Positions 2,462 through 63,208 of a stretch of DNA of 64,000 bases are shown piece after piece. Position 1 is the first letter of the stretch; the number at the start of each line of letters is the position of its first letter. The stretch covers positions 9,381-73,380 of IMG/VR virus record IMGVR_UViG_3300024966_000001; one strand, 5' to 3'. The position numbers and the translations under genes are program-made. The notes below the pieces were generated by a model that was not told where the DNA came from, searched no databases, and saw only the letters and a list, made by a program, of their open reading frames with translations. Origin of the DNA: a virus.

Positions 2462-2491
2462 TTGACATGCGCCTGTAACCACGGCTATCCT
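2462..2491 (+). promoter_or_regulatory. Sigma70 promoter of antisense module 1
   Basis: TTGACA 2462-2467, 18-bp spacer, TATCCT 2486-2491. Confidence 0.65.
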
Positions 2492-2496
2492 TTACT

Positions 2497-2730
2497 CACT
2501 GCCCCACATTGGGCAGGCGGGTTTTTGCAGGCTCGGTTGGAACTGGCGCAAAGAAGATATGCGTCAACAGGCGTATGTCTTTTTTTATGCCCTCACTTTT
2601 TATGGTGGGCGGCGTATTTGGGAGGCGAAAGCCTGGCGGCCAGTTCCCGCTCTGCAAACCCGGATATGTTGTCCACCGCCCAAGTTTTTGCAGGCTTGTT
2701 CGGTGGCTTTAATTCACTGAACTGGAGTCT
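2497..2730 (+). ncRNA. C4/IsrK-like antisense RNA leader, module 1 (ash-type region)
   Basis: Seeds CCAGTTC (2640) and CTGCAAA (2652) are complementary to GAACTGG and TTTGCAG upstream (2540, 2524) and downstream (2719, 2687); hairpin plus T-tract near 2555-2588. Confidence 0.6.
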
Positions 2731-2734
2731 GAAA

Positions 2735-2812
2735 ATGAATAACCAATCCCAAGTTACGCCCGTAATCCGCGTAGAAAACACCGACATCCCCGTAACCGTT
2801 TACCAAGCAGAT
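2735..2812 (+). pseudogene. Truncated N-terminus of an ORF6N antirepressor (MNNQSQVTPVIRVENTDIPVTVYQ)
   Basis: Similar to VENIQIPVVVYQ at the start of 3045..3773; similarity stops at the next TTGACA promoter. Confidence 0.5.
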
Positions 2813-2813
2813 A

Positions 2814-3040
2814 TTGACAGCCCGCAAAAACCGGATGATACTGACCGCACTACAACGTTAAGCGGCCAACCGCACCCGACAGCCTTTGCGGTTTTTTTAC
2901 GCCCAAAATTTCATTATGGGCGGGACGATAGGCCAAAATACAAGACCTTCGGGGAATATGCCAGCCGTCTTAACGCGGTAGTTGAGTCCCGCCTTCCCAC
3001 TACTAATGGGAAGGTTTTCAAACTAAACGTTAAGGAGACC
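2814..3040 (+). ncRNA. Sigma70 promoter plus C4-like antisense leader, module 2
   Basis: TTGACA 2814, 17-bp spacer, GATACT 2837; CCGCA..TGCGG-T7 attenuator; seed CTTAACG (2969) matches CGTTAAG at 2856 and at 3028 (over the SD). Confidence 0.65.
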
Positions 3041-3044
3041 TTCA

Positions 3045-3773
3045 ATGGTTGCTCAATCTAGTCACACCCAAAATCCGTCCACCGTTTGCGTGGAAAATAT
3101 CCAAATTCCGGTTGTTGTTTATCAAGATGCTCGTGTAATTACCACGGACTTGCTTGCTCAGGTCTATGGTTCAGAATCAAGACGTATAACAGAAAATTTC
3201 ACTCGCAATCAAGACCGCTTTGAAGTGGGCAAGCACTATTTCAAACTAGAAGGCGAAGAACTAACACGCTTTAAGCGTAGTAGTCCGCAAATCTCAAAAC
3301 AAGCTCGTCATTTAATCCTTTGGACCGAACGCGGCGCAGCCCGCCACGCCAAGATGCTCGACACCGACCAAGCCTGGGACGTGTTCGACAAACTGGAGTC
3401 GGCTTACTTCGAGCCGACAAAAGCGCTACCCACACAGGAACCCGCCAAGCTGCCGCCTGCCGACGACCTCCCTCCCGACGTTTTAGCGGTGATTGACCAC
3501 CGCGCAATGGCGATGTCTATCCGGCACTATGACAAATACAGACAAGAATTGCGCAAGGCGATCAAAAGCTGGGGGCAACATCTGACCGGGCAAATGCTGG
3601 TCGAATTCGTCAAAACCATCGAGATGAAGGACAGCCAGCTGGTTATCGTCCACAGTGACACGTTGTGGCGGCTGTCCACCCGGCTGTCCACGCTGGAAGT
3701 CGTGCAACGCGAAGCGCTGGATGCCGTGCATACGCTGGAGCAAGAAACAGGAAGGTCCTGGTACGGAAGGTAA
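3045..3773 (+). CDS. ORF6N-domain phage antirepressor-like protein
   Basis: RVITTDLLAQVYG...NF.RN..RF..GKHYFKLEGEEL...LWTERGAARHAKMLDTDQAW; SD AAGGAG. Confidence 0.85.
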   Translation: MVAQSSHTQNPSTVCVENIQIPVVVYQDARVITTDLLAQVYGSESRRITENFTRNQDRFEVGKHYFKLEGEELTRFKRSSPQISKQARHLILWTERGAARHAKMLDTDQAWDVFDKLESAYFEPTKALPTQEPAKLPPADDLPPDVLAVIDHRAMAMSIRHYDKYRQELRKAIKSWGQHLTGQMLVEFVKTIEMKDSQLVIVHSDTLWRLSTRLSTLEVVQREALDAVHTLEQETGRSWYGR

Positions 3774-3884
3774 GGAATATTAACGGCCAGGGATGGCTAT
3801 ATGAAAACAGTTTAAATAGTTTGTCAAGTAATTAATTTTAAAGGATAAGTTGTATAATATTGGCTTAAAAATAAAGGATAAAAC

Positions 3885-4379
3885 ATGCTCAATAAAGTTA
3901 TGTTAATTGGCCGATTGGGAGCTGATCCCGAAGTTCGCTACATGCCGAGCGGCGGAGCCGTTACCACAATTCGCATGGCAACGTCGAGGCGCTGGAAAGA
4001 TAAGCAATCGGGTGAGCGCCGCGAAGAAACCGAATGGCATAGGGTGGTGTTTTATAATCGTTTGGCTGAAATTGCCGGCGAGTATTTAAAAAAAGGCAGT
4101 CAGGCTTATGTTGAGGGGCGTATTCGCACTCAGAAATGGCAAGGTCAAGACGGTCAGGATCGCTACACCACGGAAATCATTGCCGATACCATGAATATGC
4201 TGGATAGCCGCAGCGGCGGCACTTCCGAGTTTGGCGGCGAACAGCCGCAGGGCGGATATTCCGCTCCCGCATCAAGACCGGACAACCCGCCCCAGCCATC
4301 GGCGCCGCAAAGCAGTTCCGGCTCCATGCCGCCGCCACCGCCAAATTATGACGATTTTGATGATGATATCCCGTTCTAG
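3885..4379 (+). CDS. ssb: Single-stranded DNA-binding protein
   Basis: [19 protein letters not shown]...TEWHRVV; C-terminal DFDDDIPF. Confidence 0.97.
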
Positions 4380-4391
4380 AGGTCACCTAGC

Positions 4392-4481
4392 ATGGTTCTT
4401 TTAATGGTTTTTATATGGGCGGCTCTTAGTAATCATTGGATGGTTGCTTTGGCGCTGCTTTATTGCATGCTGACATATTAA
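4392..4481 (+). CDS. Small hydrophobic peptide (29 aa)
   Basis: GAGGT SD; MVLLMVFIWAALSNHWMVALALLYCMLTY; fills the gap between ssb and the resolvase. Confidence 0.35.
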   Translation: MVLLMVFIWAALSNHWMVALALLYCMLTY

Positions 4482-4482
4482 T

Positions 4483-4914
4483 ATGACTAAAGTTATCGGC
4501 ATTGACCCAGGCAAGACAACTGGTTTCGCTCTTTGCATTGATGGTCAGTTGACGCATGTTATACCTACTGATTTCTGGGGGTGTATTAGGCTGATTGATG
4601 ATTGCCCGGATGCAACTATAGTTGTCGAACTGCCATTAACAAAGCACGTTTGGCACAACGGCGCTACATCAAAGAGAGCAGTACAGCGTACTGGCGTCAA
4701 TGTTGGGTCGTGTATCCGGGAGGCCGAATTGATAGTCGAGTATCTTCAAAAAAATGGCCGCAACTACATTACTCAAAAACCCAAAGGAAAATTAAATGCT
4801 GAGTCATTTAAAAAAATAACTGGATGGAAAGGACCGACAAACCAGCATGCAAGAGATGCAGCGATGCTGTGCTTTGGGTTAAAAAATTTAAATAAAGTAC
4901 AGGTGAGTCAATGA
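4483..4914 (+). CDS. RuvC-like Holliday junction resolvase
   Basis: VIGIDPGKTTG, IVVE, NQHARDAA acidic triad pattern. Confidence 0.8.
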   Translation: MTKVIGIDPGKTTGFALCIDGQLTHVIPTDFWGCIRLIDDCPDATIVVELPLTKHVWHNGATSKRAVQRTGVNVGSCIREAELIVEYLQKNGRNYITQKPKGKLNAESFKKITGWKGPTNQHARDAAMLCFGLKNLNKVQVSQ

Positions 4915-5114
4915 TCGATCAGAATGAGTTCGCGCATAACGGCGTGGCCTATGTGGCCGAATCATCGCCATCGGTAGGCAGTGTATGTTTTGGCTGTGCA
5001 TTTTTTGATTATGGTTGCTTTTCGCCTGTAGTTGATAGTTATTCGTGTAGATCAAGCGTTAGAACCGATAAGCGCGACATAATCTGGAAAAGAAAGCTTG
5101 GTGCTCATGAGTAA
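4911..5114 (+). CDS. Hypothetical Cys-rich protein
   Basis: CFGCAF...C...R.DKRDIIW; ATGA overlap with the upstream gene. Confidence 0.6.
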   Translation: MIDQNEFAHNGVAYVAESSPSVGSVCFGCAFFDYGCFSPVVDSYSCRSSVRTDKRDIIWKRKLGAHE

Positions 5115-5277
5115 CGATCTTGACACGCATTGGTTCAGGGCTAAGTGCGATGCCAACTATATCCCTGCAAATGCCGACAAAGAGCACGACTTTATCGAGC
5201 GTGTTGGCATGAAGAATGATAGCGGCACTAGCTTAGAGGATTCGAGAAACGAAGCTTGGAAGGAGTGTTTTGCATGA
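5107..5277 (+). CDS. Hypothetical protein (56 aa)
   Basis: MSNDLDTHWFRAKC...DFIERVG...; coupled to both neighbours. Confidence 0.5.
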   Translation: MSNDLDTHWFRAKCDANYIPANADKEHDFIERVGMKNDSGTSLEDSRNEAWKECFA

Positions 5278-5522
5278 GCAGGGTTATAGTTATTGGAACT
5301 GGCATATCTGCGAACGTAAGAGCTTTGATGTTGGCTAAATTATCGCTTATTTGCATAGTTCAAGAGCAAACCAAAATTGATAGCGAGGTTGGGGCACCGG
5401 TGATTATTAGGTGTTTTGATCATCATGACATCGATGCTTCATCTTTTATCAAAAAAAAACACTGTGATGGCCGTGGTTCGTGGCCCGATACTCGAAAAAG
5501 ACATAATTCCAGGAAAAAATGA
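5274..5522 (+). CDS. Hypothetical protein
   Basis: ATGA overlap and AGGAG SD. Confidence 0.5.
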   Translation: MSRVIVIGTGISANVRALMLAKLSLICIVQEQTKIDSEVGAPVIIRCFDHHDIDASSFIKKKHCDGRGSWPDTRKRHNSRKK

Positions 5523-5760
5523 TAGAAACAATAATTGTATTAACCGGTACGGCTGTACTGGTTTATTTTTGGGTTAAGGAGTGGTTGAGTGAGCATGAAG
5601 CCAAAAATTAAAAAGCAGTACGGCAGCTGGGTATGTGTGTGCGATATGGGCATTATTGGGGAAGGCGACATACCGATAATCGCGTTTCTTGATTGGCAGT
5701 TAAAGCGTAAAAAACAAAGGTAAAACAATTTCTGGTTTATTAAAGGAACTTAATCTGCTT

Positions 5761-6810
5761 ATGGTAAGTCAATCCGTTATTGATGATGTAAATGAAACCG
5801 TTCAGTTGATTATTGCTGATATGGTTATTGCAAGTGGCGATGATAACAGAGAGTATTTTGAACGACGTTTTTACCGGGAGCCAGGTATTTACCGGTTACC
5901 GGAACCAATACAGCCGATCATGGTTGATATGGCGCGAAAGATGGGTACCGTACCGGCAATCAAAGCCATGCAACGGGCTTTTACAGCGCATGGCTGCTAT
6001 TTAAAGCCTGATGGCATTATTGGGCCGATCACTGTTTCGGTGTCAAACCTGATGTACCCGGTTTACGGACAACAAGTAAAAGATGCATTGGTAAAGGAAG
6101 TCGTTGAATTTTATGCCCGCAGGTCCGATAAAAAAACAGCTCATAAGCCAATTCTGGATAACCGGATTACCGCGGCATCGTTGAGGGCTGAGCAGGTCGA
6201 AATGGTGAAGGTCATGGGGTCAAGATTCAAGGAAGCCCGTGAGATTTGCAATATGTCGCAGATATTGGCCGCCAAGGAACTGGGTTACTCAAACTCATCG
6301 AAGCTGGCCAAGATCGAGGGTAGCACTGACACCATTTCAGTGCCGCTATGGGTAATACGCCGAGCGGCCAGGTTGTACGATGTATCTATTGATTTCTTAT
6401 TCGGGGAAACCGACGACTGGGAGCGGGATATAACCGCTTCCCGGCAGAACAATGTTGCGCGCTGGCTGGTTGAGTACGGAAAACAGGCTGACGCGGCCAA
6501 GATAAGCGCCTTCCTGGTTCTAAACAATAAGCTTTCAGCGCTGGAAAAGGCGGTCGATGTAGCGGTTAAGCGGTCAAATGAGAATTTAACTGTGTTGCGG
6601 CGCATTCAAGAGCTGAACCCGGAATTTGATGAGCTGAAGGGTGGTTCCAAGCTTGTATTATGTGCTCAAGAGTCAGTGGTTGATGCAAATAAGGCGATGG
6701 CCGAGCTTAAGCGGTTTCATTGTTTGATTGAGGCTTCTCATTCAAATGGGGTTGTGTTGTTCAAGAACGTGGATCTTTTTGATTATAAGGATGATGGGTT
6801 TGATTACTAA
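5761..6810 (+). CDS. XRE-type HTH regulator with an N-terminal peptidoglycan-binding-like segment
   Basis: RFKEAREICNMSQ..AAKELGY.NSS.LAKIE...AARLYDVSIDFLFG; N-terminal AIKAMQRA....LKPDGIIGPIT. Confidence 0.7.
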   Translation: MVSQSVIDDVNETVQLIIADMVIASGDDNREYFERRFYREPGIYRLPEPIQPIMVDMARKMGTVPAIKAMQRAFTAHGCYLKPDGIIGPITVSVSNLMYPVYGQQVKDALVKEVVEFYARRSDKKTAHKPILDNRITAASLRAEQVEMVKVMGSRFKEAREICNMSQILAAKELGYSNSSKLAKIEGSTDTISVPLWVIRRAARLYDVSIDFLFGETDDWERDITASRQNNVARWLVEYGKQADAAKISAFLVLNNKLSALEKAVDVAVKRSNENLTVLRRIQELNPEFDELKGGSKLVLCAQESVVDANKAMAELKRFHCLIEASHSNGVVLFKNVDLFDYKDDGFDY

Positions 6811-6822
6811 GGTTTGTTTTTA

Positions 6823-7650
6823 ATGGCACGGCTAACTAAACAGCAATGGTCCGATGCCCGCAAGGTATGGGAACTTGACCCGCGTGAAGGCCATCAGTGG
6901 CTTGCCGATGATTTGATTGGTAAGGGCTTTGATGTAAACCGGGTAGCCATTGCCAAGGCTGCAAAAAGACAGGAATGGGCTAAGGTCACTCAGGGCGAAA
7001 AAGTCACTGAAAGCGTCACTCAAAAAGTCACTCAGAGTGACAAAAAGTCACTTAAAAAAGTTACTACTAAAAAAACAAAAACGGTACCAGTTATTACCGA
7101 TGCGGTGTGGGAAGAGGTAGATGAAAAGACCGAGCGATTGCATGGGAATTCTCTTTATAAACATGAATATGCTGAGCAAGTTTATAAGTTGTGCTTGTTG
7201 AGTGCTACTGATGTTGAGATAGCAGACTTTTTTAGAGTGTCTGAGCAAACAATTAACAACTGGAAGCATGGTTATCCCGATTTCCTTGAGTCCCTGCACC
7301 GTGGCAAGCTCATGGCTGATGCCAATGTAACGGACAGGCTTTATCAGCGAGCTATGGGCTATTCGCATGCTGATGAAAAGATATTTAATAACATGGGTGA
7401 GATTGTCAGGGCTGAAACCATTAAACACTATCCTCCCGACACTGGCGCTATAAAGTTATGGTTGTTCAATCGTCGACCTAAAGATTGGAAAGCCAACGTT
7501 GAGGCTCCTATTGAAATCAATCTGAATGTATTCCCAGCAAAAGAAGTGCTGGATGGTATTTATGAAAAAGCGCTTGAAGAAGCAGCCAAGCGTGATCAAA
7601 AGCTAATCGGCAGGCGTGAGCGGCTGGGTATATTGATCGAGCACGATTAA
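6823..7650 (+). CDS. Terminase small subunit (PacA-like)
   Basis: ATDVEIADFFRVSEQTINNWK..YPDF...KHYPPDTGA..LWL.NRRP..W; directly before terL. Confidence 0.85.
   Translation: MARLTKQQWSDARKVWELDPREGHQWLADDLIGKGFDVNRVAIAKAAKRQEWAKVTQGEKVTESVTQKVTQSDKKSLKKVTTKKTKTVPVITDAVWEEVDEKTERLHGNSLYKHEYAEQVYKLCLLSATDVEIADFFRVSEQTINNWKHGYPDFLESLHRGKLMADANVTDRLYQRAMGYSHADEKIFNNMGEIVRAETIKHYPPDTGAIKLWLFNRRPKDWKANVEAPIEINLNVFPAKEVLDGIYEKALEEAAKRDQKLIGRRERLGILIEHD
6985..7065. repeat. Cluster of GTCACT hexamers inside terS, candidate pac site
   Basis: GTCACT at 6985, 7003, 7015, 7027 and 7047; inverted AGTGAC at 7036; GTTACT at 7060. Confidence 0.6.
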
Positions 7651-9176
7651 TGTCCGATAAGCGCGTACTACTTCCTGAAGATCCGCGATGGCTTCCGTTT
7701 TGCGAGCGATACGCGGGCGACTTGGAAAAGTTCGCCATTGAAGTGCAGGGGGTTATTCCATCCTCGCAACAAGTTGAGTTATTTGCAAGTGTTTCGCCGT
7801 CACGGTCACGCACGTCGGTGGCTTCTGGTCATGGGACTGGAAAAACCTTTTCAATCGCCAATATCGTACTTTGGCATCTTCTCTGTTACCCGATGTCCGT
7901 AACATTGCTCACGGCAAACGACATGGACCAGCTGAAGGTAACGGTATGGAAAGAAATTGGCATAGCACTGGAGCGTATCAGGCGAGGGCCGCATGGATGG
8001 ATTGCCGAGCACGTTGATATTTTAGCCGACGCTACGTGCCGTGTTGTTGGTTTTGAGGCGGTATGGTTTGTAGAATCTAAGACAGCCAATGAAAAGACTG
8101 CAAACAAGATGGCCGGGCGCCACGGCGAATGGCTGTTAATTATCGGCGACGAAGCATCCTCATTGCCCGAGATTGTGCTGACAACGCTCTCAGGAGCACT
8201 TACTGAGCAGCACAACCGGATGATGTTGACCAGTCAGCCGACCCGTAACGCCGGTTTTTTCTACCGAACACACAATGACCTTTCAAGCAATAACGGCGGC
8301 GAATGGACATCGTTAGTATTTGATTCGTTTGATTCTCCGTTTGTTAGCGATGAGTCGCTTATGGAACTGTGGAATCAGTACGAGGATGACGAGCGTAATG
8401 TCAGGTTGCTTGGCCGGTTTCCACAGGATTCATCAAAGCACATGATGAGCCGGGCTGTTGCTGAGTCAATGTACACGCGAGGCCGTATTATTCAAGATAA
8501 TGAGAATTACGGCTGGCTTTCCCTGGGTGATATTGCGTCTGGTGAGGGGTTACGCGATAAGTCGGCAAACGTCATCGCAAAGGTTGTCGGTTATGGCGAT
8601 ATTGGCCCGGATGCGCGGCGGGTAGAGGTCGTCATCATCCCGCTGTTGACCAATAAAATACGCTCAAATCAGTTTGCGTGGTCAATGGTCGACAATGGTT
8701 CTGATTTTCATAATATTACCTATACGGTTGACTCGGGTGGTCTTGGTATTAATGTGTGCCAGGATCTCGAAGATGCCGATAAGGTTGTTCACCGGGTCAA
8801 CTGGGGCAATCCTTGTTTCAAGAAAAGCAATAAGGATCGATACCTTAATCTTAGGGCTCAAGCCATGCACCAAGCGGCTAGGGCGGCTAAAGAGGGGCGT
8901 TTATCTGTACTGACTGTTGATTTTAAGAACGTAATGCTGGATCAGTCATCGCGCATACCGAAAGACTTTACCGATAAGGGGCGTATTCGAGTGCCGCCCA
9001 AGGGATCTAAAGAATGGGATGGCCTGGGCAGTCCGGATTTGTGGGACGCAGTGTGCTTTGCGTTTCTTGAGAACGTAAATTACATGGTTTGTGAGAGCGA
9101 TAAAGGCGGAGATGGGATTACGGCAGCCGACACAGCCAAGGCCGAGGCCGCGAATATGTTTGCTGATGTGGCTTAA
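7650..9176 (+). CDS. Terminase large subunit (PacB-like)
   Basis: Walker A SVASGHGTGKT, Walker B LIIGDEA, nuclease motifs LGDIA and SPDLWDA. Confidence 0.93.
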   Translation: MSDKRVLLPEDPRWLPFCERYAGDLEKFAIEVQGVIPSSQQVELFASVSPSRSRTSVASGHGTGKTFSIANIVLWHLLCYPMSVTLLTANDMDQLKVTVWKEIGIALERIRRGPHGWIAEHVDILADATCRVVGFEAVWFVESKTANEKTANKMAGRHGEWLLIIGDEASSLPEIVLTTLSGALTEQHNRMMLTSQPTRNAGFFYRTHNDLSSNNGGEWTSLVFDSFDSPFVSDESLMELWNQYEDDERNVRLLGRFPQDSSKHMMSRAVAESMYTRGRIIQDNENYGWLSLGDIASGEGLRDKSANVIAKVVGYGDIGPDARRVEVVIIPLLTNKIRSNQFAWSMVDNGSDFHNITYTVDSGGLGINVCQDLEDADKVVHRVNWGNPCFKKSNKDRYLNLRAQAMHQAARAAKEGRLSVLTVDFKNVMLDQSSRIPKDFTDKGRIRVPPKGSKEWDGLGSPDLWDAVCFAFLENVNYMVCESDKGGDGITAADTAKAEAANMFADVA

Positions 9177-9177
9177 T

Positions 9178-9448
9178 TTGACAACTGCTATAGGTGCGGC
9201 TATGCTTTGTCTCGGAGTCTCGAAATCTCCTCTCAAAGCGGAACCCGCACCCGAAAGACCATGCGGTATTTTTTTGCCTTGCATTTTTCAGATTATCGAT
9301 CAATGTTGGGGATAGGCTAATACAAGACCCGAAAGGGAAATAGGCCTGACTGTCTTTGAGCAGTTTCGAGTCCCCGACACCAAACGGAATAGGGGGTATA
9401 TGGATAATCCACATACCCCTTTAATAATCGAAAATAACTCAAGGAACC
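9178..9448 (+). ncRNA. Sigma70 promoter plus C4-like antisense leader, module 3
   Basis: TTGACA 9178, 17-bp spacer, TATGCT 9201; seeds CTTTGAG (9354) and TTTCGAG (9364) match CTCAAAG (9232), CTCGAAA (9219), TCGAAA (9428) and CTCAAG (9438). Confidence 0.65.
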
Positions 9449-9451
9449 ATC

Positions 9452-10471
9452 ATGACCACTCAAACATTAACCATCAATTTCCACGGCACTGATTTATTCA
9501 TCGTTGAACACGACGGACAGCCTTATACTCCAATGAAAACCATCGTTGAAGGAATGGGTTTAAATTGGGCAAGTCAGTTTGTAAAACTGAAATCAAATGA
9601 ACAAAGATGGGGTATTGTGAAAATCGCAATCCCCACCCTTGGCGACATGCAAGAGGCTATATGTATGCCTTTGCGCAAACTAGCTGGGTGGCTATCAACA
9701 ATCAGCCCAAACAAGGTTAAGGCAGATTTACGCGATACCATTATCTATTATCAAAATGAATGCGATGATGTCTTATGGAATCACTGGACAAAAGAACATG
9801 TTCAATACGGCCTAAAACAACTCCCAGAACCTAAAACCAAAAAAGCCCTGCCCGGCGGACTGACTCTTGAAATGCAGGACGAAATCAAAGCTCTGATCAA
9901 AGAGCGCGTCGAAATGCTACCGCAAGAGAAATGGCGTGGTGCATCAATGCAGCTTTGGGGTAGCATTAAAAAGAAATTCAGCTTAACCAAAGAGCAATCT
10001 TACAAAGATTTATCGCCAGAGCATTATGCCAGCTGCCTTTCCATGCTTACCAGATTGGAGCTAAAAGGCGACCCACTACTTCACGTCACGCCGCTGGAAC
10101 TTGCCGCCCTGGTAGATGAGCGGGTTAAGGCGATTGAGGGCGAATTATTGCCCAAAACAAAGCCCGTGCAATACAACAGCATCACACTAAACCTTGTACC
10201 GATTACCGACGGCAAGATGAAGCGCTTTATGGTAACTCAACATCCTGAGGGTGGGATGGATTTTTGGGCGGTCGGTGACGATAAGAAAATCATGACCGAC
10301 GAGCAAATGATCTTGCATTTACAAAATAATAATTATGTCGTTGTCGAGCGCACACCCGGCGGCATGACCCGTATGGTTGCGCACTATTTGCCTCATCAGG
10401 TCTTGCCGGTTCTATTACGAGCTATTGGTGAGCGAATTGAAAGAACTGAAACGGGTAAATTGCAGGCTTAA
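9452..10471 (+). CDS. P22_AR N-terminal-domain antirepressor-like protein
   Basis: FHG..L..VEHDGQPYTPMK.IVEGMGLNW.SQF.KL...CMPLRKLAGWL.TISPNKV...YQNECDDVLW. Confidence 0.88.
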   Translation: MTTQTLTINFHGTDLFIVEHDGQPYTPMKTIVEGMGLNWASQFVKLKSNEQRWGIVKIAIPTLGDMQEAICMPLRKLAGWLSTISPNKVKADLRDTIIYYQNECDDVLWNHWTKEHVQYGLKQLPEPKTKKALPGGLTLEMQDEIKALIKERVEMLPQEKWRGASMQLWGSIKKKFSLTKEQSYKDLSPEHYASCLSMLTRLELKGDPLLHVTPLELAALVDERVKAIEGELLPKTKPVQYNSITLNLVPITDGKMKRFMVTQHPEGGMDFWAVGDDKKIMTDEQMILHLQNNNYVVVERTPGGMTRMVAHYLPHQVLPVLLRAIGERIERTETGKLQA

Positions 10472-10506
10472 TTGCCGAGTGCCATCAAGCCAAGGATGGC
10501 GTACTC

Positions 10507-46025: not shown

Positions 46026-46050
46026 ATTAACCTGACATGAGATTTAAACC

Positions 46051-46371: not shown

Positions 46372-46995
46372 ATGATGATTTCAAGCGCTGAAGCTGTAGA
46401 AATTTTAGAGTTACATTTTGCTGCATTTCATAAAGTCGCGCATGATGCGTGGGATGCATATTTGGAAATACCTGAGAAATCCAGAATGGGACTCTCCAAG
46501 CGTTCAAGAGCTAGCATAGTGCATGATTACATGATTCTTGAAGCTGCAAAATATGCGGACTCAGCAGATGGAATTAAGTTATTTAATCTTAAAATGCTAT
46601 ACGGATTGGTAATTGACAATGTTGCCATAAGGTTTAAAAAATTTAATGAGCTCAATTTATCAAGCAATAATTTAACCGCTCAAGTTAAAAATTTTAGGAA
46701 CCAGCTTCAAATAGAAGGAATTCCAGCCATTTGCCACCTAGAAGTTGGATATAGCCTAGATGATCATGAAAAAGAAATTTCTCAAGTTACGCTGGCATGT
46801 CCGGGTGGAGTAAGAAGTAACATTTGGGAAATGGAGCTCAATGGGGCAGAAGCTATTCCATTAGTTGAAAACATATTTGATTCAATTAAAAAGGACGACA
46901 TAAAACCTTCAATAATCAAATCGAAGAAAAAAGGCGAGGTTATCCCGATTGGAATAGCCTCAGGAGAGCAAAAAGATGGTAACGACGACAAGTAA
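46372..46995 (+). CDS. Hypothetical protein, putative toxin/effector paired with the HTH-peptidase
   Basis: RSRASIVHDYM...IRFKKF...SSN..T.Q...F..Q...GY.LD; overlaps the next gene; AT-rich. Confidence 0.6.
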   Translation: MMISSAEAVEILELHFAAFHKVAHDAWDAYLEIPEKSRMGLSKRSRASIVHDYMILEAAKYADSADGIKLFNLKMLYGLVIDNVAIRFKKFNELNLSSNNLTAQVKNFRNQLQIEGIPAICHLEVGYSLDDHEKEISQVTLACPGGVRSNIWEMELNGAEAIPLVENIFDSIKKDDIKPSIIKSKKKGEVIPIGIASGEQKDGNDDK

Positions 46996-48082: not shown

Positions 48083-48242
48083 TAAGATTCGAGCCAATGA
48101 CGCGCCAACGTCATTGGCTCCTAGTGACATGGAAGTCGAGCATCCCTCTGTCACCTACAGCTTGTCCTAGCAGACTCCATGAATAATAGTCTATTCATAG
48201 GTTGTAGGCAAATATTGCTCTCCATATTACTTGGAGATAAAC

Positions 48243-48371
48243 ATGAGAAATGTTTACAACAGAGTAAAAGATGTATTTGTTAACAAATATACTCGATTCC
48301 GTTTCGGACGTATCGAGCATGTTTGCCAACATTGGCGGTCGCATCCTGGGCAGCTAGATTTGTTTAATTAA
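48243..48371 (+). CDS. 42-aa basic peptide with a C-terminal QLDLF motif (not in the ORF track)
   Basis: GGAG SD; MRNVYNRVKDVFVNKYTRFRFGRIEHVCQHWRSHPGQLDLFN; followed by a terminator. Confidence 0.7.
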   Translation: MRNVYNRVKDVFVNKYTRFRFGRIEHVCQHWRSHPGQLDLFN

Positions 48372-48382
48372 TACTGCTATTT

Positions 48383-48420
48383 TGCCGTGCCATTTGAAAA
48401 TAATGGCGCGGCATTTTTAT
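48383..48420 (+). terminator. Terminator hairpin between convergent genes
   Basis: TGCCGTGCCATT...AATGGCGCGGCA-TTTTT. Confidence 0.7.
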
Positions 48421-48473
48421 TTCCGCCTTTGTGCGGCTGCTACATAATACTGAAAAATAACGAAAGTTGTCAA

Positions 48474-48767
48474 TTACTCGGATTTTTTAACAAGTTCAAC
48501 TGATATTAATTTTTTAAGTGTTCCGCCATATTCATTTTTTTCCACCATTGCAGTGGCTTTGCAAACATCGCCGCCATGACATTTATCAAATATTTTTTTT
48601 GACTTTGGGTCATTAGAAATAAAGGTTATGTCATTGCCACTTTCGTCAGTAATTGATGAGTCTAACGTACCGTATTGCAATACTCCGGTGACAGTTACTT
48701 TCTCATCTTTTGCTTGAGCAGAAAACGCAATAAATAATCCTAACGCCATAACAACAACTTTTTTCAT
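48474..48767 (-). CDS. Small exported protein (moron)
   Basis: GGAG SD; signal peptide MKKVVVMALGLFIAFSAQA; C..G..C. Confidence 0.75.
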   Translation of the reverse strand: MKKVVVMALGLFIAFSAQAKDEKVTVTGVLQYGTLDSSITDESGNDITFISNDPKSKKIFDKCHGGDVCKATAMVEKNEYGGTLKKLISVELVKKSE

Positions 48768-48862
48768 ACCATTCTCCAAATTTAATCGCTAACAAAAATC
48801 ATAAGCCGCGCATGGTCGCCGAAGCTGGGCGTTATGTCAATCGTGTTAGGGTGCATAAAGTC

Positions 48863-48902
48863 GGAAAATCAGAGAAAAGCTTTATAAATCCATGAATATA
48901 AT
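48863..48902 (+). promoter_or_regulatory. Putative late promoter 8, antisense to 48942..49256
   Basis: GGAAAAT-N27-TATAAT. Confidence 0.55.
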
Positions 48903-48941
48903 AAAGCCAACTATCGGGGCGTGTCGCTTGCTCGGTCGTAC

Positions 48942-49256
48942 TTAGTTTGTTTGCAGTAAAGACATGACATTGCAGGCCAAGCCAATAATTTGCATGAAAA
49001 AACCGGCTGCTAATAACTTGGTCCCGGTTTTTTCTGCCTCATTGACTTGGTTATGCATACCATGAATCTGAATATTACGAATATTCTCCCCCCTTGCTCT
49101 GGCGGCATTGACTTGAAAATTAATATCCAGCGCCCGGACAGCCAAAGAGAGCGAGCCAAGAATTTTTGTAACCCTCCACGATACAAGCAAGGTTCCAATA
49201 AACATGAAAACAGCACTCAGTATTTTTAATAGATTTACATCAATTTCGAGGATCAT
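48942..49256 (-). CDS. Two-TM membrane protein (moron)
   Basis: Hydrophobic N- and C-terminal helices. Confidence 0.6.
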   Translation of the reverse strand: MILEIDVNLLKILSAVFMFIGTLLVSWRVTKILGSLSLAVRALDINFQVNAARARGENIRNIQIHGMHNQVNEAEKTGTKLLAAGFFMQIIGLACNVMSLLQTN

Positions 49257-49260
49257 AAAA

Positions 49261-49476
49261 ATGTGGCCATTTAAAAAAAGTAAAAAATCAGAACCTGTAA
49301 AAGATTTATATTCGTTTACTCCTCAAGACGATATTACCGCTCTTGAATGTGCTGATTTCTTAAGTGATTCGACTAGGTTCAGAATTATAACCGAAGACTA
49401 TGTAAGCAATCTTCCCGACTCGATGAAAAGGCATTTCCAAAAAATATCTGCATCCGATTGCGAGTCCAAGCAATAG
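49261..49476 (+). CDS. Hypothetical protein (MWPFKK...)
   Basis: GAGGA SD; F.PQ.DITA.E.A...LP...KRHF. Confidence 0.55.
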   Translation: MWPFKKSKKSEPVKDLYSFTPQDDITALECADFLSDSTRFRIITEDYVSNLPDSMKRHFQKISASDCESKQ

Positions 49477-49504
49477 CTCGGGATAAGCCGCTTTTTTCGC
49501 CATA

Positions 49505-49544
49505 GGAAAACGGTGTAAATACAACTAAATTTAGGCAATAACAT
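49505..49544 (+). promoter_or_regulatory. Putative late promoter 9
   Basis: GGAAAAC-N27-TAACAT. Confidence 0.55.
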
Positions 49545-49574
49545 AATGACTCTATAATTTTTACGGAGTCAATT

Positions 49575-50201
49575 GTGAGCAATTTAATCAAAAGCAACGC
49601 GGTCGCAAGACTTCTTTCTGTGACCATGCATACTATCCGCGACATGCGGCGTGACGGACTTCTTCCGCTGCCTGTTGTTGTTGGAAAAAGCGAGTTATGG
49701 GTTGATGCTGAGATCGAATCCTGGCTAAAGTGCAAGTTAGCCGAAAGAGAGGGGTGCAACATGGATGTTGTTAACGACCTGCCTTGGCCTCCTGTTTTGT
49801 TGAGTGGCAGACAGGTAGCAAGTATTTTTAAGGTAATGGATGATACCGTCTTGGTCCTTGCCAAGGCCGGTAAATTACCAGGCGCAATTATCATCGCAAA
49901 GAAAAATTCTTACCGATGGGTTAAGTCTGAAGTTTATGACCTCATTAAAAAGCTTCTTTTAGAGAGAGGTTGCGCTAATGAAATACCTTCCGAGCCTGTT
50001 TTGATTGGCGCAAATGAAGTCGCTATAAAATTAGGTTTCACAAATTCCGGCTATATATCAGCGCTCAGCAAGAAAGGGGTACTGCCCAAGCCAATCACGA
50101 TAGGAGGCAAGCTACTTTTTTGGGTTGAGTCTGAGATTCAGGAATATGCTGACAGCAAAATAGCGGAGCGTGACGCGGCTGTTGATGGGGGTGCGGAATG
50201 A
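49575..50201 (+). CDS. Protein with three tandem AlpA/Xis-like wHTH domains
   Basis: Three repeats of VA..L......G.LP.P...G....W..SE(I/V). Confidence 0.75.
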   Translation: MSNLIKSNAVARLLSVTMHTIRDMRRDGLLPLPVVVGKSELWVDAEIESWLKCKLAEREGCNMDVVNDLPWPPVLLSGRQVASIFKVMDDTVLVLAKAGKLPGAIIIAKKNSYRWVKSEVYDLIKKLLLERGCANEIPSEPVLIGANEVAIKLGFTNSGYISALSKKGVLPKPITIGGKLLFWVESEIQEYADSKIAERDAAVDGGAE

Positions 50202-50953
50202 GCCAGTTAATTCCATTCGAGTTTGAAAGTTCGTCTGTTCGCATAATTACCAATGATAATGGCGATCCATTATTTGTGGCGAAGGATGTTTCTGAAGCGC
50301 TGGGTTACGCTTGGTCCGGTGCCGCTACGATCAGGCATATACCGAATGAATGGAAGGGGGTTGATTCGGTTCCAACCCCCTCCGGAAACCAAGAAATGTC
50401 AGTACTTACAGAGCAAGGCTTGTACTTTTTCCTTGGTAGAAGTGACAAGCCAAAAGCGCTCCCAATGCAAAAATGGATTGCAGGCGATGTTTTGCCATCA
50501 ATCCGCAAAACCGGCAAATACGAACTAAATCCAGCTGATCAACAATACAAATTGCCCGGCAATTATATCGAAGCTCTTGAGGCTCTACTTGAGTCTGAAA
50601 AGCAAAGAGCCCTGGATGCGCCAAAAGTCCGACTAGCCACACTCATTTCAGAGTCATCAAATTCTCGCTGCATTAGGGTTTGGGTTAAAGCCATGAAAAA
50701 CGAGAATAACCTATGTGTTGGTGAGCGCGACGTTTTCAAATATTTGATCGATAAAAAGTACATCTTCAAGCCGAAAGGTGAAAAAGGCTATCTCCCATAT
50801 TCCCGCCACGAATCAACAGGAACGGGTTTTTTCGCGGTTGTTGTCGATGAAATTAACGGAAAGCCAAGGCGAATGCTCAAGATAACAGGAAAAGGGGTTT
50901 TGAACTTAACCGCCAAAGTGATTGAGCATTTCAATGAGGATATAGCTGCTTAG
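50198..50953 (+). CDS. BRO-N plus KilAC(ANT) antirepressor-like protein
   Basis: PLFVAKDV..ALGY...LTEQGLYFFLGRSDKPKA...WI..DVLPSIRKTG.Y; APKV...KITGKG. Confidence 0.9.
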   Translation: MSQLIPFEFESSSVRIITNDNGDPLFVAKDVSEALGYAWSGAATIRHIPNEWKGVDSVPTPSGNQEMSVLTEQGLYFFLGRSDKPKALPMQKWIAGDVLPSIRKTGKYELNPADQQYKLPGNYIEALEALLESEKQRALDAPKVRLATLISESSNSRCIRVWVKAMKNENNLCVGERDVFKYLIDKKYIFKPKGEKGYLPYSRHESTGTGFFAVVVDEINGKPRRMLKITGKGVLNLTAKVIEHFNEDIAA

Positions 50954-59089: not shown

Positions 59090-59097
59090 GAGAAATT

Positions 59098-59481: not shown

Positions 59482-59487
59482 CTTTAG

Positions 59488-61824
59488 ATGCTTGGCTTAT
59501 CGCCGTTTGGTGCTTCGCCATTTGGCGGCGAGCCTGATGACATAATAATTGGTATAGCCGGCGGTGCTGTTAGTGTTGCCAGCGCTACTGGTTCGGCTAC
59601 CGATAAGCTAAGCCTATCCGGTTCCGCTACAGCAACGGCGACAGACTCCAGCACCACATCGCTCAAAGTTTCGGCAGCGGGTTCGGCCGGTGCCGTTGCC
59701 AGTGATGGTGGCGTTGCTGTTGCGGTAGACAGCGTCAGAAGCGCCAACATATCGGCATCTATGTTTGGGGCGTCATCGTTTGGTGCGGAACCATTCGGTG
59801 CGGAGGGAGAAGGCGTTATCAATGGGTTTGACGGCCTCTTCGGAAGTGTTGCGAGTGCGGCAGGGGCAACCACAATAACCCTCGGTATATCCGGTTCTTT
59901 CGCAGCAACGGCGAATGAATCCGGCGTAGCATCGATAAGCCTATCAGCGGCGGGTTCCGTCACTTCTGTTTCGAGTGATACGGGAGCCGTAAAAAACACT
60001 CTCGGAGTATCTGGATCTGTCGCATCATCATCGTCGGATTCCGGCGCAGTATCGCTAAAAATCCCCCTCTCGGGTTCTTCCGCTTCCGTTTCCAGTGATG
60101 CAGGAGTCGCCACAAATACCCTCGGCGTATCCGGTGCAGCAGCAGCTATGGGTTCTGATGCAGCGACACTCGGCGTATCCATAGGTGGTTCGGCAACTTC
60201 CGTTTCAAACGATAGTGGCGCCGCGGTAATTATTGATAGCGTTACTTGTGCCAGCATATCGGCTTCAATGTTTGGAGCGTCGTCATTTGGGTCGTCGTCA
60301 TTCGGTGCTGAGGGTGATGGTGTAATAAATGGTTTTGATGGCAGTGCTAACAGCATTGCCAGTGGTTCCGGCGTTGCCACCAACACGCTCGGATTATCCG
60401 GCTCGGTAACAGCAACGGCGACGGATACCGGTGCTTTAGCAATAGCTGAGGCATTAAGCGGATCGCCAACCGCCATTACCACCACCACTGGCACGGCTGT
60501 CGCTGTCGATAGCGTCAAGAGCGCAAGCATATCAGCCGCAATGTTCGGTGCTTCATCATTCGGGGCGATGTCGTTCGGCTCTGAAGGCGATGGCGTAATA
60601 AATGGCTTCGATGGTGTTTTTGCTTCCTTTGCCAGCGACACTGGTGCCGCTACCGTTGCTCTGTCTATATCTGGTTCGGGTGCATCGGTTGCGACGGATT
60701 CCGGAGCGCCGGTGGTCGTAATATCTACGAGTGGATCGGCTACCGCTGTTTCAAGCGATACCGGCACTGTCACCAATACGAATAGCTTATCCGGATCTAG
60801 CGCGGCGATAGCAACGGATTCCGGCACGGCGACACTCGGCATATCCCTAAGTAGCACGGCTGCTGCCACAGCCAGCGATACCGGTACCGGTATTGCCGTT
60901 GATAGTATTTCCTGCGCCAGCATATCGGCTTCAATGTTTGGAGCGTCGTCATTTGGTAGTTCATCATTCGGCGCTGAGGGTGATGGTGTAATAAATGGTT
61001 TTGATGGCAGTGCTAACAGCATTGCCAGTGGTTCCGGCGTTGCCACCAACACGCTCGGATTATCCGGCTCGGTAACAGCAACGGCGACGGATACCGGTGC
61101 TTTAGCAATAGCTGAGGCATTAAGCGGATCGCCAACCGCCATTACCACCACCACTGGCACGGCTGTCGCTGTCGATAGCGTCAAGAGCGCAAGCATATCG
61201 GCCGCAATGTTCGGTGCTTCATCATTCGGGGCAATGTCGTTCGGCTCTGAAGGCGATGGCGTCATAAACGGCTTCGATGGTGTTTTTGCTTCCTTTGCCA
61301 GTGACACTGGTGCCGCTACCGTTGCTCTGTCTATATCTGGTTCATGTGCATCGGTTGCGACGGATTCCGGAGCGCCGGTGGTCGGCATATCCGCGAGCAG
61401 CTCGGCCGGTGCCGTTGCCAATGACGGCGGCGCTGTAACAATTGCGAAAAATTTGCTTGGCGGTGCTGAATCCATAGCAACGGATACTGGACATATAGCA
61501 AGGCAAAATTTGCAAGGTGATGCTCAGACAGATTCTGAGTCCTTGGGCGAGGTACAATTATCTATCTCGGTTGAAGGGGGTTCCGCTTCCTCCAATTCTG
61601 CCACTACTGGAAATTTAACGGAGATTATTCGCAGTGCAAAAAGCGTAACTCCAGTAAGGACGGCAATTAGTGTAACGAAAAAACTAAGCGCAAGAAGTGT
61701 AATGCCGGTAAAAAATATAATCAATGTTGCGTCAAAATTAAGTGCTATTGACACTACACGCCAATACAGCGCCACAAGTCATACAATAATAAGAAGTTTA
61801 AGGATATTTGATGTCGCAGCTTGA
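59488..61824 (+). CDS. Large Ser/Ala/Gly-rich repeat virion protein
   Basis: MLGLSPFGASPFGG start; five MFGASSFG..(S/P)FG.EG.GVINGFDG units. Confidence 0.75.
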   Translation: MLGLSPFGASPFGGEPDDIIIGIAGGAVSVASATGSATDKLSLSGSATATATDSSTTSLKVSAAGSAGAVASDGGVAVAVDSVRSANISASMFGASSFGAEPFGAEGEGVINGFDGLFGSVASAAGATTITLGISGSFAATANESGVASISLSAAGSVTSVSSDTGAVKNTLGVSGSVASSSSDSGAVSLKIPLSGSSASVSSDAGVATNTLGVSGAAAAMGSDAATLGVSIGGSATSVSNDSGAAVIIDSVTCASISASMFGASSFGSSSFGAEGDGVINGFDGSANSIASGSGVATNTLGLSGSVTATATDTGALAIAEALSGSPTAITTTTGTAVAVDSVKSASISAAMFGASSFGAMSFGSEGDGVINGFDGVFASFASDTGAATVALSISGSGASVATDSGAPVVVISTSGSATAVSSDTGTVTNTNSLSGSSAAIATDSGTATLGISLSSTAAATASDTGTGIAVDSISCASISASMFGASSFGSSSFGAEGDGVINGFDGSANSIASGSGVATNTLGLSGSVTATATDTGALAIAEALSGSPTAITTTTGTAVAVDSVKSASISAAMFGASSFGAMSFGSEGDGVINGFDGVFASFASDTGAATVALSISGSCASVATDSGAPVVGISASSSAGAVANDGGAVTIAKNLLGGAESIATDTGHIARQNLQGDAQTDSESLGEVQLSISVEGGSASSNSATTGNLTEIIRSAKSVTPVRTAISVTKKLSARSVMPVKNIINVASKLSAIDTTRQYSATSHTIIRSLRIFDVAA
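60250..61383 (+). repeat. Near-identical internal duplication of about 470 bp, offset 666 bp
   Basis: 60250-60717 matches 60916-61383 with few substitutions. Confidence 0.9.
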
Positions 61825-62125
61825 AGAATTTGTCCATTTAGGATGCATAAATACCATCGAATTATCCTTGCTCGTCGATGAGGCTGTAATTACTCATACA
61901 TCAATTACACGATGCCAGATAAAAATCGGCATCGTCTTGATAGATAGCGACATACTACCCGATGCATTTGATTTTACACATCCAGAAAAGCTTATTCTGA
62001 AATTTGGCGATGTGGGACTTACAGAGGGTGAATACCAGTCGAAACTTTATGTGTTTGAGGTTAATACTGAAGGTCGTATTTTCTGGTGCGACCTGAAGAT
62101 AACGGTTATTGATGATGGTTTTTAG
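61811..62125 (+). CDS. Hypothetical structural protein
   Basis: AGGA SD; last gene of the rightward operon. Confidence 0.55.
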   Translation: MSQLEEFVHLGCINTIELSLLVDEAVITHTSITRCQIKIGIVLIDSDILPDAFDFTHPEKLILKFGDVGLTEGEYQSKLYVFEVNTEGRIFWCDLKITVIDDGF

Positions 62126-62242
62126 TTTGCTTGTCGATATAGGCACACAAATCGGTGTAGTTTACGGTTTTTAGGCATGTAGACACCTAAAATGGCGTCT
62201 ACATCGCGTTAGGCCTCGCCACCGAAGCAGCGGGGCCGGTTG

Positions 62243-62944
62243 TTAATCTCGTCCGTACCACGGCATCCCTGTTTCTTGCTCCAGCGCATTAATTGAGCTT
62301 AATGCTTTCTTTTGCGCTATATCGAGGTAGGCAAGGCATGATGTCAACTGCCACAAGGTATCTCGGTGGACGATGACCAGTTTACTGTCGGGCAGGTCTA
62401 TATGCTGGATGAACTCCACCAGCTTTTGCCCTTCCAGGTCTTTGCCCCATTTCCGTATCGCTTCGCGTAACTGCTCTTTGATCTTGTCGTATTGGCGCAG
62501 GCTCAAGGTGTGGGCGCGGCGCTCGATGGCGGATTCTACTTCTTTAGCAAATGGTCCGGCAGGCGGCAAGGTTTTGGCTGTTTCCGTAGCCTTGCCGTGC
62601 AGTTCGCTTTCCATGCGATTGAAGGTGGTGATGTAGGCTTCTTTCCATTGCGCGGCTTTTGCGCCAGTGAAGCCCATCGCCAAGAACATAAAACCGTCTC
62701 GGGTGATTTCGTACATGGTTTCTTCGCGGCTGGCGTTCTTACCTCCTACGACTTGGTATTTGCTAACGCCAAAATTGGCGGCAGCAAATTCTGGCGAGCA
62801 TTCCAAACTCTCAATAGCTCGTAAAACTCGATAATGAGCTTTGCCAAAATGTTCGGCAATTTTCAGCGAAGTAGTTTTAATTTCACCGTTGATGATGGCG
62901 AGTTCTGGATTTAGTTCGGGCGTGGTTTGGGGCGTGGTATTCAT
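62243..62944 (-). CDS. Rha-family phage regulatory/antirepressor-like protein
   Basis: TTSLKIAEHFGK.H..VLRAIESL.CS.EF...NF...MYEITRDGFMFLAMGFTG.KAA.WKE.YI..FN.ME. Confidence 0.9.
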   Translation of the reverse strand: MNTTPQTTPELNPELAIINGEIKTTSLKIAEHFGKAHYRVLRAIESLECSPEFAAANFGVSKYQVVGGKNASREETMYEITRDGFMFLAMGFTGAKAAQWKEAYITTFNRMESELHGKATETAKTLPPAGPFAKEVESAIERRAHTLSLRQYDKIKEQLREAIRKWGKDLEGQKLVEFIQHIDLPDSKLVIVHRDTLWQLTSCLAYLDIAQKKALSSINALEQETGMPWYGRD

Positions 62945-62945
62945 G

Positions 62946-63208
62946 ATTGCGACCTTTAAAAACGAGTTTAAAACCCGCCTCCAAACGATGCCAATCATAA
63001 GGAGACGGACTGAACGAAGTTGGCATACCGAGGTCGCACCCGGCCACCCTTGCGGGTGCTCCATCCAGCCCGTCATAACTGGGGGCCGTGCGTTGGACAC
63101 AAAAAAACCGCAAGGTTGCGGCTGTGCCGCGACATTCAGGATGCCAATCCCGCCTGCCCAATGTGGGGCAGTGGGTAAATGGTAGTCTTGTTTTATCGCG
63201 GCTGTCAA
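62946..63208 (-). ncRNA. Sigma70 promoter plus C4/IsrK-like antisense leader, module 4
   Basis: TTGACA (63208-63203), 18-bp spacer, TACCAT; same 25-nt 5' end as module 1; seeds TGCGACC and ATGCCAA match GTCGC and TTGGCAT upstream and downstream. Confidence 0.65.

Follow-up and report, generated by a model that had tools for sequence, protein, structure and literature searches.

A 64,000-nucleotide (nt) stretch of viral DNA, hereafter the window, carries four short modules, M1 to M4, in which a promoter, a pair of target sites, a structured RNA with two seed segments and a second pair of target sites follow one another in the same order. The window comprises bases 9381-73380 of the 73,380-bp IMG/VR virus record IMGVR_UViG_3300024966_000001, which is linear and has an estimated completeness of 83%. 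We consider it likely that the modules are immI-type cassettes, each complete in itself, of the kind known from P1 c4 and Gifsy-1 IsrK. The original prediction described four C4/IsrK-like antisense switches, and the core of this reading is supported by covariance models, by complementarity, by the families of the downstream genes and by co-variation in relatives, but the gene behind M1 is a stub. The predicted complete switches number three, M1 lacking an intact gene.

Structured RNAs of the C4 and sRNA-Xcc1 families

The structured RNAs of all four modules are 82-86 nt long. Their positions in the window and their seed segments, a' and b', are as follows.

2598-2683, plus strand: C4-class RNA of M1, b' CCAGTTC at 2640-2646 in the loop of hairpin 2, a' CTGCAAA at 2652-2658 in the linker
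2919-3001, plus strand: sRNA-Xcc1-class RNA of M2, b' CTTAACG at 2969-2975, a' GTAGTT at 2978-2983
9305-9386, plus strand: sRNA-Xcc1-class RNA of M3, b' CTTTGAG at 9354-9360, a' TTTCGAG at 9364-9370
62998-63080, minus strand: C4-class RNA of M4, b' TGCGACC at 63038-63032, a' ATGCCAA at 63026-63020

The Infernal search with Rfam models that had been suggested as a check returns a C4 (RF01695) or sRNA-Xcc1 (RF02221) covariance-model match for all four RNAs, two of them above the gathering scores of 45 bits for C4 and 53 bits for sRNA-Xcc1. M4 passes the C4 model with 59.2 bits and a full-length match (1-87), and M3 passes the sRNA-Xcc1 model, a family first described in a Xanthomonas integron, with 65.3 bits. 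A search of the whole 73,380-bp record with the C4 and sRNA-Xcc1 models finds these four RNAs and no others.

M1, M3, and M4 adopt the family fold, with z-scores of -3.48, -2.98, and -4.05, respectively. In the minimum-energy folds of M1 and M4, a long outer stem surrounds two hairpins, after which about 7 nt form a single-stranded linker. The same C4 fold is found in 14 further C4-type RNAs, and the outer stem with its 3' tail is kept in 16/16 folded. The seeds are placed as in the C4 family: the loop of the second hairpin contains b', and the single-stranded linker that leads into the closing stem contains a'.

Seeds and target sites

The sites complementary to the seeds, a1 and b1 upstream of the RNA and a2 and b2 downstream of it, lie at the following positions.

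2524-2547, plus strand: M1 upstream sites, a1 TTTGCAG at 2524-2530, b1 GGAACTGGC at 2539-2547
2687-2727, plus strand: M1 downstream sites, a2 at 2687-2693, b2 at 2719-2725, overlapping GGAG at 2724-2727
2849-2862, plus strand: M2 upstream sites, a1 ACTAC, b1 CGTTAAG
3021-3037, plus strand: M2 downstream sites, a2 AACTA at 3021-3025, b2 CGTTAAG at 3028-3034, overlapping AAGGAG
9219-9238, plus strand: M3 upstream sites, a1 CTCGAAA, b1 CTCAAAG
9428-9444, plus strand: M3 downstream sites, a2 TCGAAA, b2 CTCAAGG (one G-U pair), over the ribosome-binding site
Within 63099-63171, minus strand: M4 upstream sites, a1 TTGGCAT at 63147-63141, b1 GTCGCG at 63133-63128
62948-62994, minus strand: M4 downstream sites, a2 at 62994-62988, b2 AGGTCGCA at 62955-62948, over the ribosome-binding site

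Each seed had been proposed to match its own upstream and downstream targets. For M1 this holds in full, both 7-mers being exactly complementary upstream (2524, 2540) and downstream (2687, 2719), while the other modules agree in most but not all pairings. In M3 both 7-mers are exact upstream, but downstream a' pairs over 6 nt and b' over 7 nt, one of the latter pairs being G-U; in M4 ATGCCAA is exact on both sides and TGCGACC is exact downstream, but upstream TGCGACC pairs over 6 nt with one G-U. CTTAACG of M2 has exact complements upstream and downstream, but the pairing of GTAGTT covers just 5 nt in either flank. In every module a precedes b, and b2 covers part of the Shine-Dalgarno sequence at a distance of 7-11 nt from the start codon.

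Searching the sense strand of the 73-kb record for an a site with its own b site within 45 nt returns only the two cognate leaders of each module. Apart from these, the a..b combination turns up only, and trivially, on the antisense strand of the RNA gene itself. The confinement of these predicted paired sites to the cognate leaders is far beyond chance. A scan of viral contigs for the a2..b2 pattern of M1 gave at least 118 single matches, which is the chance level for a 14-base gapped pattern and is therefore uninformative on other phages sharing the M1 code.

Promoters and leaders

All four modules open with a promoter in which a perfect TTGACA is followed, after 17-18 nt, by a -10 hexamer; each site has 10 of 12 matches in the promoter scan, and shuffles of the promoter regions give a mean of 0.1-0.9 sites.

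2462-2491, plus strand: M1 promoter, TTGACA, 18 nt, TATCCT (10/12)
2814-2842, plus strand: M2 promoter, TTGACA, 17 nt, GATACT (10/12)
9178-9206, plus strand: M3 promoter, TTGACA, 17 nt, TATGCT (10/12), starting 2 nt past the terminase stop codon
63179-63208, minus strand: M4 promoter, TTGACA, 18 nt, TACCAT (10/12)
2499-2516, plus strand: M1 leader hairpin CTGCCC-ACAT..GGGCAG, common to M4
2555-2586, plus strand: M1 terminator-like leader hairpin with a T7 run at 2580-2586 (RNAfold -11.9 kcal/mol, looser test)
2868-2898, plus strand: M2 terminator-like leader hairpin with a T7 run (-8.6 kcal/mol, looser RNAfold test)
9243-9275, plus strand: M3 terminator-like leader hairpin with a T7 run (-7.2 kcal/mol, looser RNAfold test)
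63099-63171, minus strand: IsrK-like leader of M4, with a hairpin at 63171-63154 and a terminator at 63123-63106 plus T run

The predicted common layout is borne out for the promoter, the site pairs and the RNA, whereas its hairpin with T-tract is positive in the strict terminator scan in M4 only. A hairpin with seven T's sits between the upstream sites and the RNA in the modules, and the looser test with RNAfold accepts those of M1, M2, and M3 and misses that of M4.

The M4 leader scores 43.9 bits with the isrK model and 26.3 bits with the c4-a1b1 model, both below cut-off, and the M2 leader gives a weak isrK match over 2824-2898 (15 bits). The isrK (RF01394) cut-off of 50 bits is reached by no leader, and the M1 and M3 leaders are unmatched at E <=10 / <=5. 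A motif scan with the leader hairpin shared by M1 and M4 yielded 2 loci, both without a C4-class RNA, which we regard as chance matches. In M4, a second promoter-like site (TTGGCA, 18 nt, TAAACT; 9/12) lies at 62994-62965 on the minus strand and overlaps a2. It might give the Rha gene described below a transcript of its own, with b2 still included.

Downstream genes and the M1 stub

In every module the second site pair had been placed before an antirepressor-like gene. This is correct for M2, M3, and M4, but M1 precedes a gene stub of about 25 codons.

3045-3773, plus strand: ORF6N-type antirepressor gene of M2 (PF10543, 6.6e-22; anti-repressor PHROGs)
9452-10471, plus strand: P22-Ant-type antirepressor gene of M3 (PF10547, P22_AR_N, 6.5e-40; phrog_524)
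62243-62944, minus strand: Rha-type regulator/antirepressor gene of M4 (PF09669, 1.7e-26; PHROG match)
2735-3061, plus strand: 108-codon frame after M1, the first ~25 codons ORF6N-like, the remainder running through the M2 module

The products of the M2, M3, and M4 genes all match PHROG anti-repressor or regulator families. The 108-codon frame, judged by its sequence, is probably what is left of an ORF6N-type gene that the incoming M2 cassette truncated. Its residues 13-24 are identical to the N-terminus of the ORF6N protein at 9 of 12 positions (VENxxIPVxVYQ; E 0.001 in a single comparison), the likeness stops about 7 nt before the -35 hexamer of M2, and the frame then spans the whole M2 module and stops 17 nt inside the ORF6N gene. 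Some 80 open codons across the M2 RNA sequence are unlikely to arise by chance (about 0.02 by our own estimate). A candidate reading of the frame as an icd/orf45-like coupling open reading frame (ORF) is considered less likely than a remnant, as it belongs to no PHROG family and has no equivalent in four other two-RNA stacks described below.

The window also encodes a Bro-N gene (50198-50953) and a KilA-N gene (45314-46081, minus strand), with no C4-class RNA nearby at E <=1. Searching viral contigs with the sequence of the Ant protein found only 2 relatives, too few for a co-variation analysis.

Co-variation of seeds and sites in relatives

To relatives of the sRNA-Xcc1-type RNAs we assigned viral (IMG/VR) stretches with the hairpin-1 core motif, of which there are at least 106, and four matches with short flanks were dropped. 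The matches listed comprise 105 segments and 95 distinct modules with 69 distinct hairpin-2 loops and 29 distinct linkers, and the counts for this RNA class refer to these listed modules. A cognate match is a Watson-Crick run of at least 6 between seed and flank. For both RNA classes the counts take related modules as independent and rely on a heuristic hairpin parser.

b' against the upstream flank: cognate 70/95, non-cognate 243/1425
b' against the downstream flank: cognate 69/95, non-cognate 191/1425
a' against the upstream flank: cognate 67/95, non-cognate 266/1425
a' against the downstream flank: cognate 67/95, non-cognate 305/1425

When each distinct loop is represented by a single module, b' finds a match in both flanks in 47/69 cognate pairs compared to 198/4692 non-cognate pairs. 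A frame of at least 70 codons starts within 260 nt in 76/95 modules and within 80 nt in 69. Among the latter 69, a b2 match is present in 58, ending 7-15 nt before the start in 51 of the 58, and an a2 match in 47. Both sites match in 41/69 cognate cases, a2 always being upstream of b2, compared to 7/1035 non-cognate cases. Upstream of the RNA, 49/95 modules have a terminator-like element, compared to 4/95 for the downstream control.

The 75 distinct downstream proteins match the Pfam families Bro-N (13), KilA-N (12), Rha (11), AntA (10), P22_AR_N (9), and ORF6N (8).

The C4-type set consists of 14 matches from other records together with M1 and M4, 16 in total. Here, both downstream sites match in 12/16 cognate compared to 2/240 non-cognate combinations, and both upstream sites in 11/16 compared to 11/240. 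The co-variation in homologues on which the original prediction had been made to depend is thus found, the seeds co-varying with their targets in both sRNA-Xcc1-type and C4-type modules.

Orthogonality and number of modules per phage

Taking the exact seeds, no non-cognate leader of the four offers both sites. A duplex-energy matrix, which is a crude sum of duplex energies computed for 10-nt seed oligonucleotides, ranks the cognate downstream leader best in 4/4 rows, with margins of 1.0 to 7.7 kcal/mol. Several cognate energies are unremarkable compared to shuffles, for example, 109/1000 for M2 downstream. Orthogonality of the four predicted codes is plausible and a reasonable expectation.

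The modules do not form a panel in one region, as had been proposed, but occupy three loci over 60 kb. The proposed contrast with the single immI locus of P1 is true, but it does not make this phage special, since phages with several modules are frequent in IMG/VR and tabulated in papers. In a survey of 50 viral records, each at least about 25 kb long, the C4 and sRNA-Xcc1 models were run at E <=1e-4 and the two families summed. Since 48 of the records were picked for their Xcc1 core motif, the remaining two stemming from other searches, the sample favors records with at least one copy. Two or more RNAs are present in 21/50 records, three or more in 9/50, and four or more in 5/50, the top of the survey being one 78-kb provirus with six, two records with five, and two with four.

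The 78-kb provirus, rated 100% complete, holds three sRNA-Xcc1 and three C4 RNAs with differing seeds. At least four of them have a frame within about 50 nt, and two of the N-termini appear Bro-N-like by eye. Two-RNA stacks without an intervening gene occur in four other viral records, and further tandem pairs flank short antirepressor genes. In one such stack (positions 1900-5000 of record G020), 140 nt separate a C4 from an sRNA-Xcc1 RNA, and both precede one ORF6N-like gene. Next come another C4 RNA and a paralogous gene, an arrangement that mirrors the M1-M2 stack.

Published accounts, as far as their accessible text goes, contain similar cases. Xylella Temecula1 has five tandem sRNA-Xcc1 copies and strain De Donno a run of sRNA-Xcc1, isrK, and C4 (PMC12189769); APSE phages carry c4 and isrK, some adding sRNA-Xcc1 before an ORF6N gene (10.1101/2020.03.17.996009); and Acinetobacter baumannii has many C4-like Group 1 small RNAs that differ in a' (PMC5320573). 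Together with the survey counts, these published tables indicate that the multiplicity is already in the data and partly in print.

Proposed mechanism and alternative explanations

As the signature matches those of P1/P7 immI and Gifsy-1 isrK, the structured RNA is the putative repressor and the terminated leader the putative decoy. Following the literature on P1/P7 and IsrK, most transcripts would end at the terminator of the leader as a short decoy RNA, and the structured RNA would come from read-through transcripts, out of which RNase P would probably cut it. This RNA would bind a2 and b2 and block translation of the antirepressor, in the lysogen as well as on an incoming phage with the same code, and the decoy would compete for the antisense RNA, so that the gene could switch on. 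The promoter scans found no separate promoter between the terminator and the RNA, which fits an RNA made by read-through. Under the cassette model, M2, M3, and M4 would therefore lock the ORF6N, P22-Ant, and Rha antirepressors independently. M1 would be a stacked orphan with its RNA and sites intact, its gene having presumably been truncated by the landing of the M2 cassette.

Several observations weigh against this reading. The M1 RNA scores 42.6 bits with the C4 model, below the cut-off, over a full-length match with an E value of 1.4e-6 in the permissive search of 2300-3300 and 2.5e-8 in the record; the M2 RNA scores 48.2 bits with the sRNA-Xcc1 model, also below the cut-off and full-length, with an E value of 2.7e-7 in the permissive search of 2300-3300. 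M2 furthermore folds weakly (z -1.29), its minimum-energy fold differs from the family structure, and its a' pairing spans only 5 nt. The hairpins of M1-M3 are not found by the strict terminator scan, which accepts that of M4 only. The duplex energies separate cognate from non-cognate weakly, and for the upstream leaders the cognate is best in 3/4 rows, because the M2 seeds bind the M1 leader better. In the co-variation analysis, the start codons were selected by a rule that requires a Shine-Dalgarno-like motif, and related modules were treated as independent. Unlike P1, M2-M4 have no icd-like leader ORF between b2 and the antirepressor gene, and the authors of the IsrK study, in the text available, invoke alternative mRNA folds and no trans repressor (PMC4825925). 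Finally, the sole RNA run in which the phage is found, a freshwater-sediment metatranscriptome with 0.29 of the sampled phage words present, yields low-depth contigs only. These are 100% identical over, for example, 2408-2630 and 2880-3188 at a depth of 4-5; such contigs cannot give ends, strand, or level, and they may stem from DNA carry-over.

The view taken of IsrK suggests a distinctly unlikely alternative for the modules, namely, that they act in cis only. The read-through mRNA would hide or expose the ribosome-binding site by alternative folds, and the short leader RNA would be the sole trans regulator, an activator, with no excised repressor and no immunity. Gifsy-1 isrK has been explained in this way by experiment, with structures A and B and with IsrK raising anrP translation at least 100-fold (PMC4825925, available text), and the signature of a1/b1, seeds, and a2/b2 is identical under the cis-only and the trans models. 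The founding members of the C4 family, however, are RNase P-processed trans repressors according to the accessible descriptions (PMC5320573; 10.1101/2020.03.17.996009), all 16 folded C4-type RNAs keep the outer stem with the 3' tail, and a stable processed RNA complementary to IsrK, STnc1160, is described downstream of IsrK itself (PMC4825925). Very improbable, in our view, is that the sRNA-Xcc1-type RNAs of M2 and M3 target host or unlinked genes in trans, their place next to antirepressor genes being incidental. The family has been discussed as a virulence-linked trans-acting small RNA with predicted host and plant targets (PMC12189769, accessible part), and it is found upstream of symE in Xanthomonas integrons (10.1101/2025.06.18.660453, accessible part), but the variable loop and linker match and co-vary with the flanking sites across 69-95 listed modules, at most 63/75 of the downstream proteins of the listed modules have an antirepressor-type N-terminal domain (if the six Pfam counts are non-overlapping), and no further paired sites are present in this phage record.

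It is possible, if on balance unlikely, that some of the modules are nonfunctional relics of cassette turnover, M1 having lost its gene and M2 being a degraded copy. The M1 gene is indeed a stub, both RNAs score below the Rfam cut-offs, M2 folds poorly, and cassettes appear to come and go, the M3 cassette (9172-10501) being absent from the closest terminase relatives, which have other DNA in the slot. On the other hand, M1 keeps a perfect -35 hexamer, a fold with a z-score of -3.5, and four exact sites of 7-9 nt, and the recurrence of gene-less two-RNA stacks in the four other viral records suggests retention.

The immI-type cassette reading can be extended to a multi-channel RNA code for immunity and anti-immunity, in which each antirepressor would have its own lock and its own decoy and orphan RNAs would silence the antirepressors of rival phages in trans. 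We hold this extension to be rather doubtful. If it were true, the stacks and arrays, two to six modules per phage and five in tandem in Xylella, would form a heritable superinfection-immunity repertoire, and sRNA-Xcc1, now read as a virulence small RNA, would be one class of lock.

Cassette behavior and genomic setting

Compared to the closest Methylobacter prophage, similarity breaks off at 9171, with five bases of the terminase gene still to come, and returns at 10502. The M3 module with its gene (9172-10501, 1330 bp) is absent there, and the slot holds 835 bp (L128:4523-5357) with an unrelated 166-amino-acid frame; no C4-class RNA was found in this 835-bp replacement. The positions of the break imply that the cassette starts essentially at its own -35 hexamer. 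The modules appear to behave as compact mobile units that start at the -35 hexamer and can stack on one another. Another Methylobacter metagenome-assembled genome (MAG) has an int-alpA RNA match in the same slot (L129:2190-2621; 43.7 bits, opposite strand), and the slot directly after the terminase gene varies among related prophages.

The Methylobacter relatives of the terminase, together with the presence of a cI/LexA-like repressor (HTH_3 and Peptidase_S24), which is encoded at 3138-3827 on the minus strand of the record, outside the window, suggest a temperate phage whose host resembles a freshwater methanotroph. The terminase frame (7650-9176) matches a large-subunit PHROG; among bacterial genomes, Methylobacter MAGs encode its nearest relatives, at 88% and 84% identity, followed by Nitrosomonas and others. 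We found no tyrosine integrase in the record, and a near-identity search of the phage collection with 2300-10500 gave zero matches.

The plus strand bears nearly all long frames in the window. A stretch at 46000-50000 is poor in G and C (0.37-0.40 compared to about 0.49 elsewhere) and looks like a separately acquired block; the genes in and around it are the KilA-N gene, an HTH_3 protein frame (46976-48082), and, at the edge, the Bro-N gene. At 59484-61824, two frames on opposite strands overlap almost fully, with 663 amino acids on the minus strand and 778 on the plus strand, and neither has a convincing family match.

Relation to known systems

The circuit is textbook phage biology, exemplified by P1 immI, with a well-studied Salmonella relative in IsrK, and nothing about it is categorically new. 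The modules share with P1/P7 immI (c4, RF01695; c4-a1b1, RF03163) the succession of promoter, a1 and b1, structured RNA, a2 and b2, and antirepressor gene, as well as the location of b' in the loop of a hairpin and of b2 on a ribosome-binding site, and a specificity set by few seed bases. They differ from it in the terminator-like hairpin between a1/b1 and the RNA, in their number, four modules at three loci compared to one, and in their genes, which are of the ORF6N, P22-Ant, and Rha type. As the icd-like leader ORF of P1 is missing, b2 sits on the antirepressor's own ribosome-binding site.

Like the processed P4 CI RNA with seqA and seqC, the RNAs are predicted to pair with duplicated sites upstream and downstream of themselves, but CI causes transcription termination of replication genes. 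The IsrK paper names the CI RNA as a structural analogue (PMC4825925, available text). In P1/P7, c4 is processed by RNase P, b' occludes the ribosome-binding site, and a' gives the specificity (PMC5320573; 10.1101/2020.03.17.996009, accessible parts).

At the IsrK locus, a promoter gives a short terminated RNA, and part of the transcription continues through a structured region and an antirepressor-like gene. This gene is transcribed but left untranslated, and IsrK supplied in trans increases translation more than 100-fold (PMC4825925, available text). The modules resemble the arrangement of Gifsy-1 IsrK, orf45 (STnc1160), and AnrP in having a predicted promoter-proximal short RNA complementary to a downstream RNA. 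In this comparison the promoters and the complementarity are clear, and the terminator is positive in the strict scan for M4 and in the looser test for M1-M3. In contrast to Gifsy-1, M2-M4 have no orf45-type coupled ORF, and the mechanism published for IsrK is activation via alternative folds.

The papers on multi-copy C4-like RNAs, as far as accessible (PMC5320573, PMC12189769, 10.1101/2020.03.17.996009), likewise describe several C4-class RNAs per replicon with differing a'/b' and tandem stacking, but the copies are not presented there as separate locks with their own decoy and target sites on different antirepressors. The accessible literature found by our searches, supplements apart, nowhere presents sRNA-Xcc1 as a lock of the C4 type with decoy and target sites of its own, and it describes no single phage with several differently coded locks on different antirepressors. 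We therefore regard the sRNA-Xcc1-class modules, as predicted here, as an undescribed variant of a known circuit and the others as new members of it.

Whereas Rfam lists sRNA-Xcc1 as a family separate from C4 and the accessible literature treats it as a virulence-linked trans-acting small RNA, in this phage and in the 95 listed viral modules it appears, by its sequence context, as a cis-linked C4-type lock on antirepressor genes. The full C4 signature of sRNA-Xcc1 before such genes suggests a rereading of the Xanthomonas, Xylella, and APSE RNAs. Several differently coded locks on different antirepressor types in one phage furthermore offer a natural set of candidate orthogonal RNA regulators.

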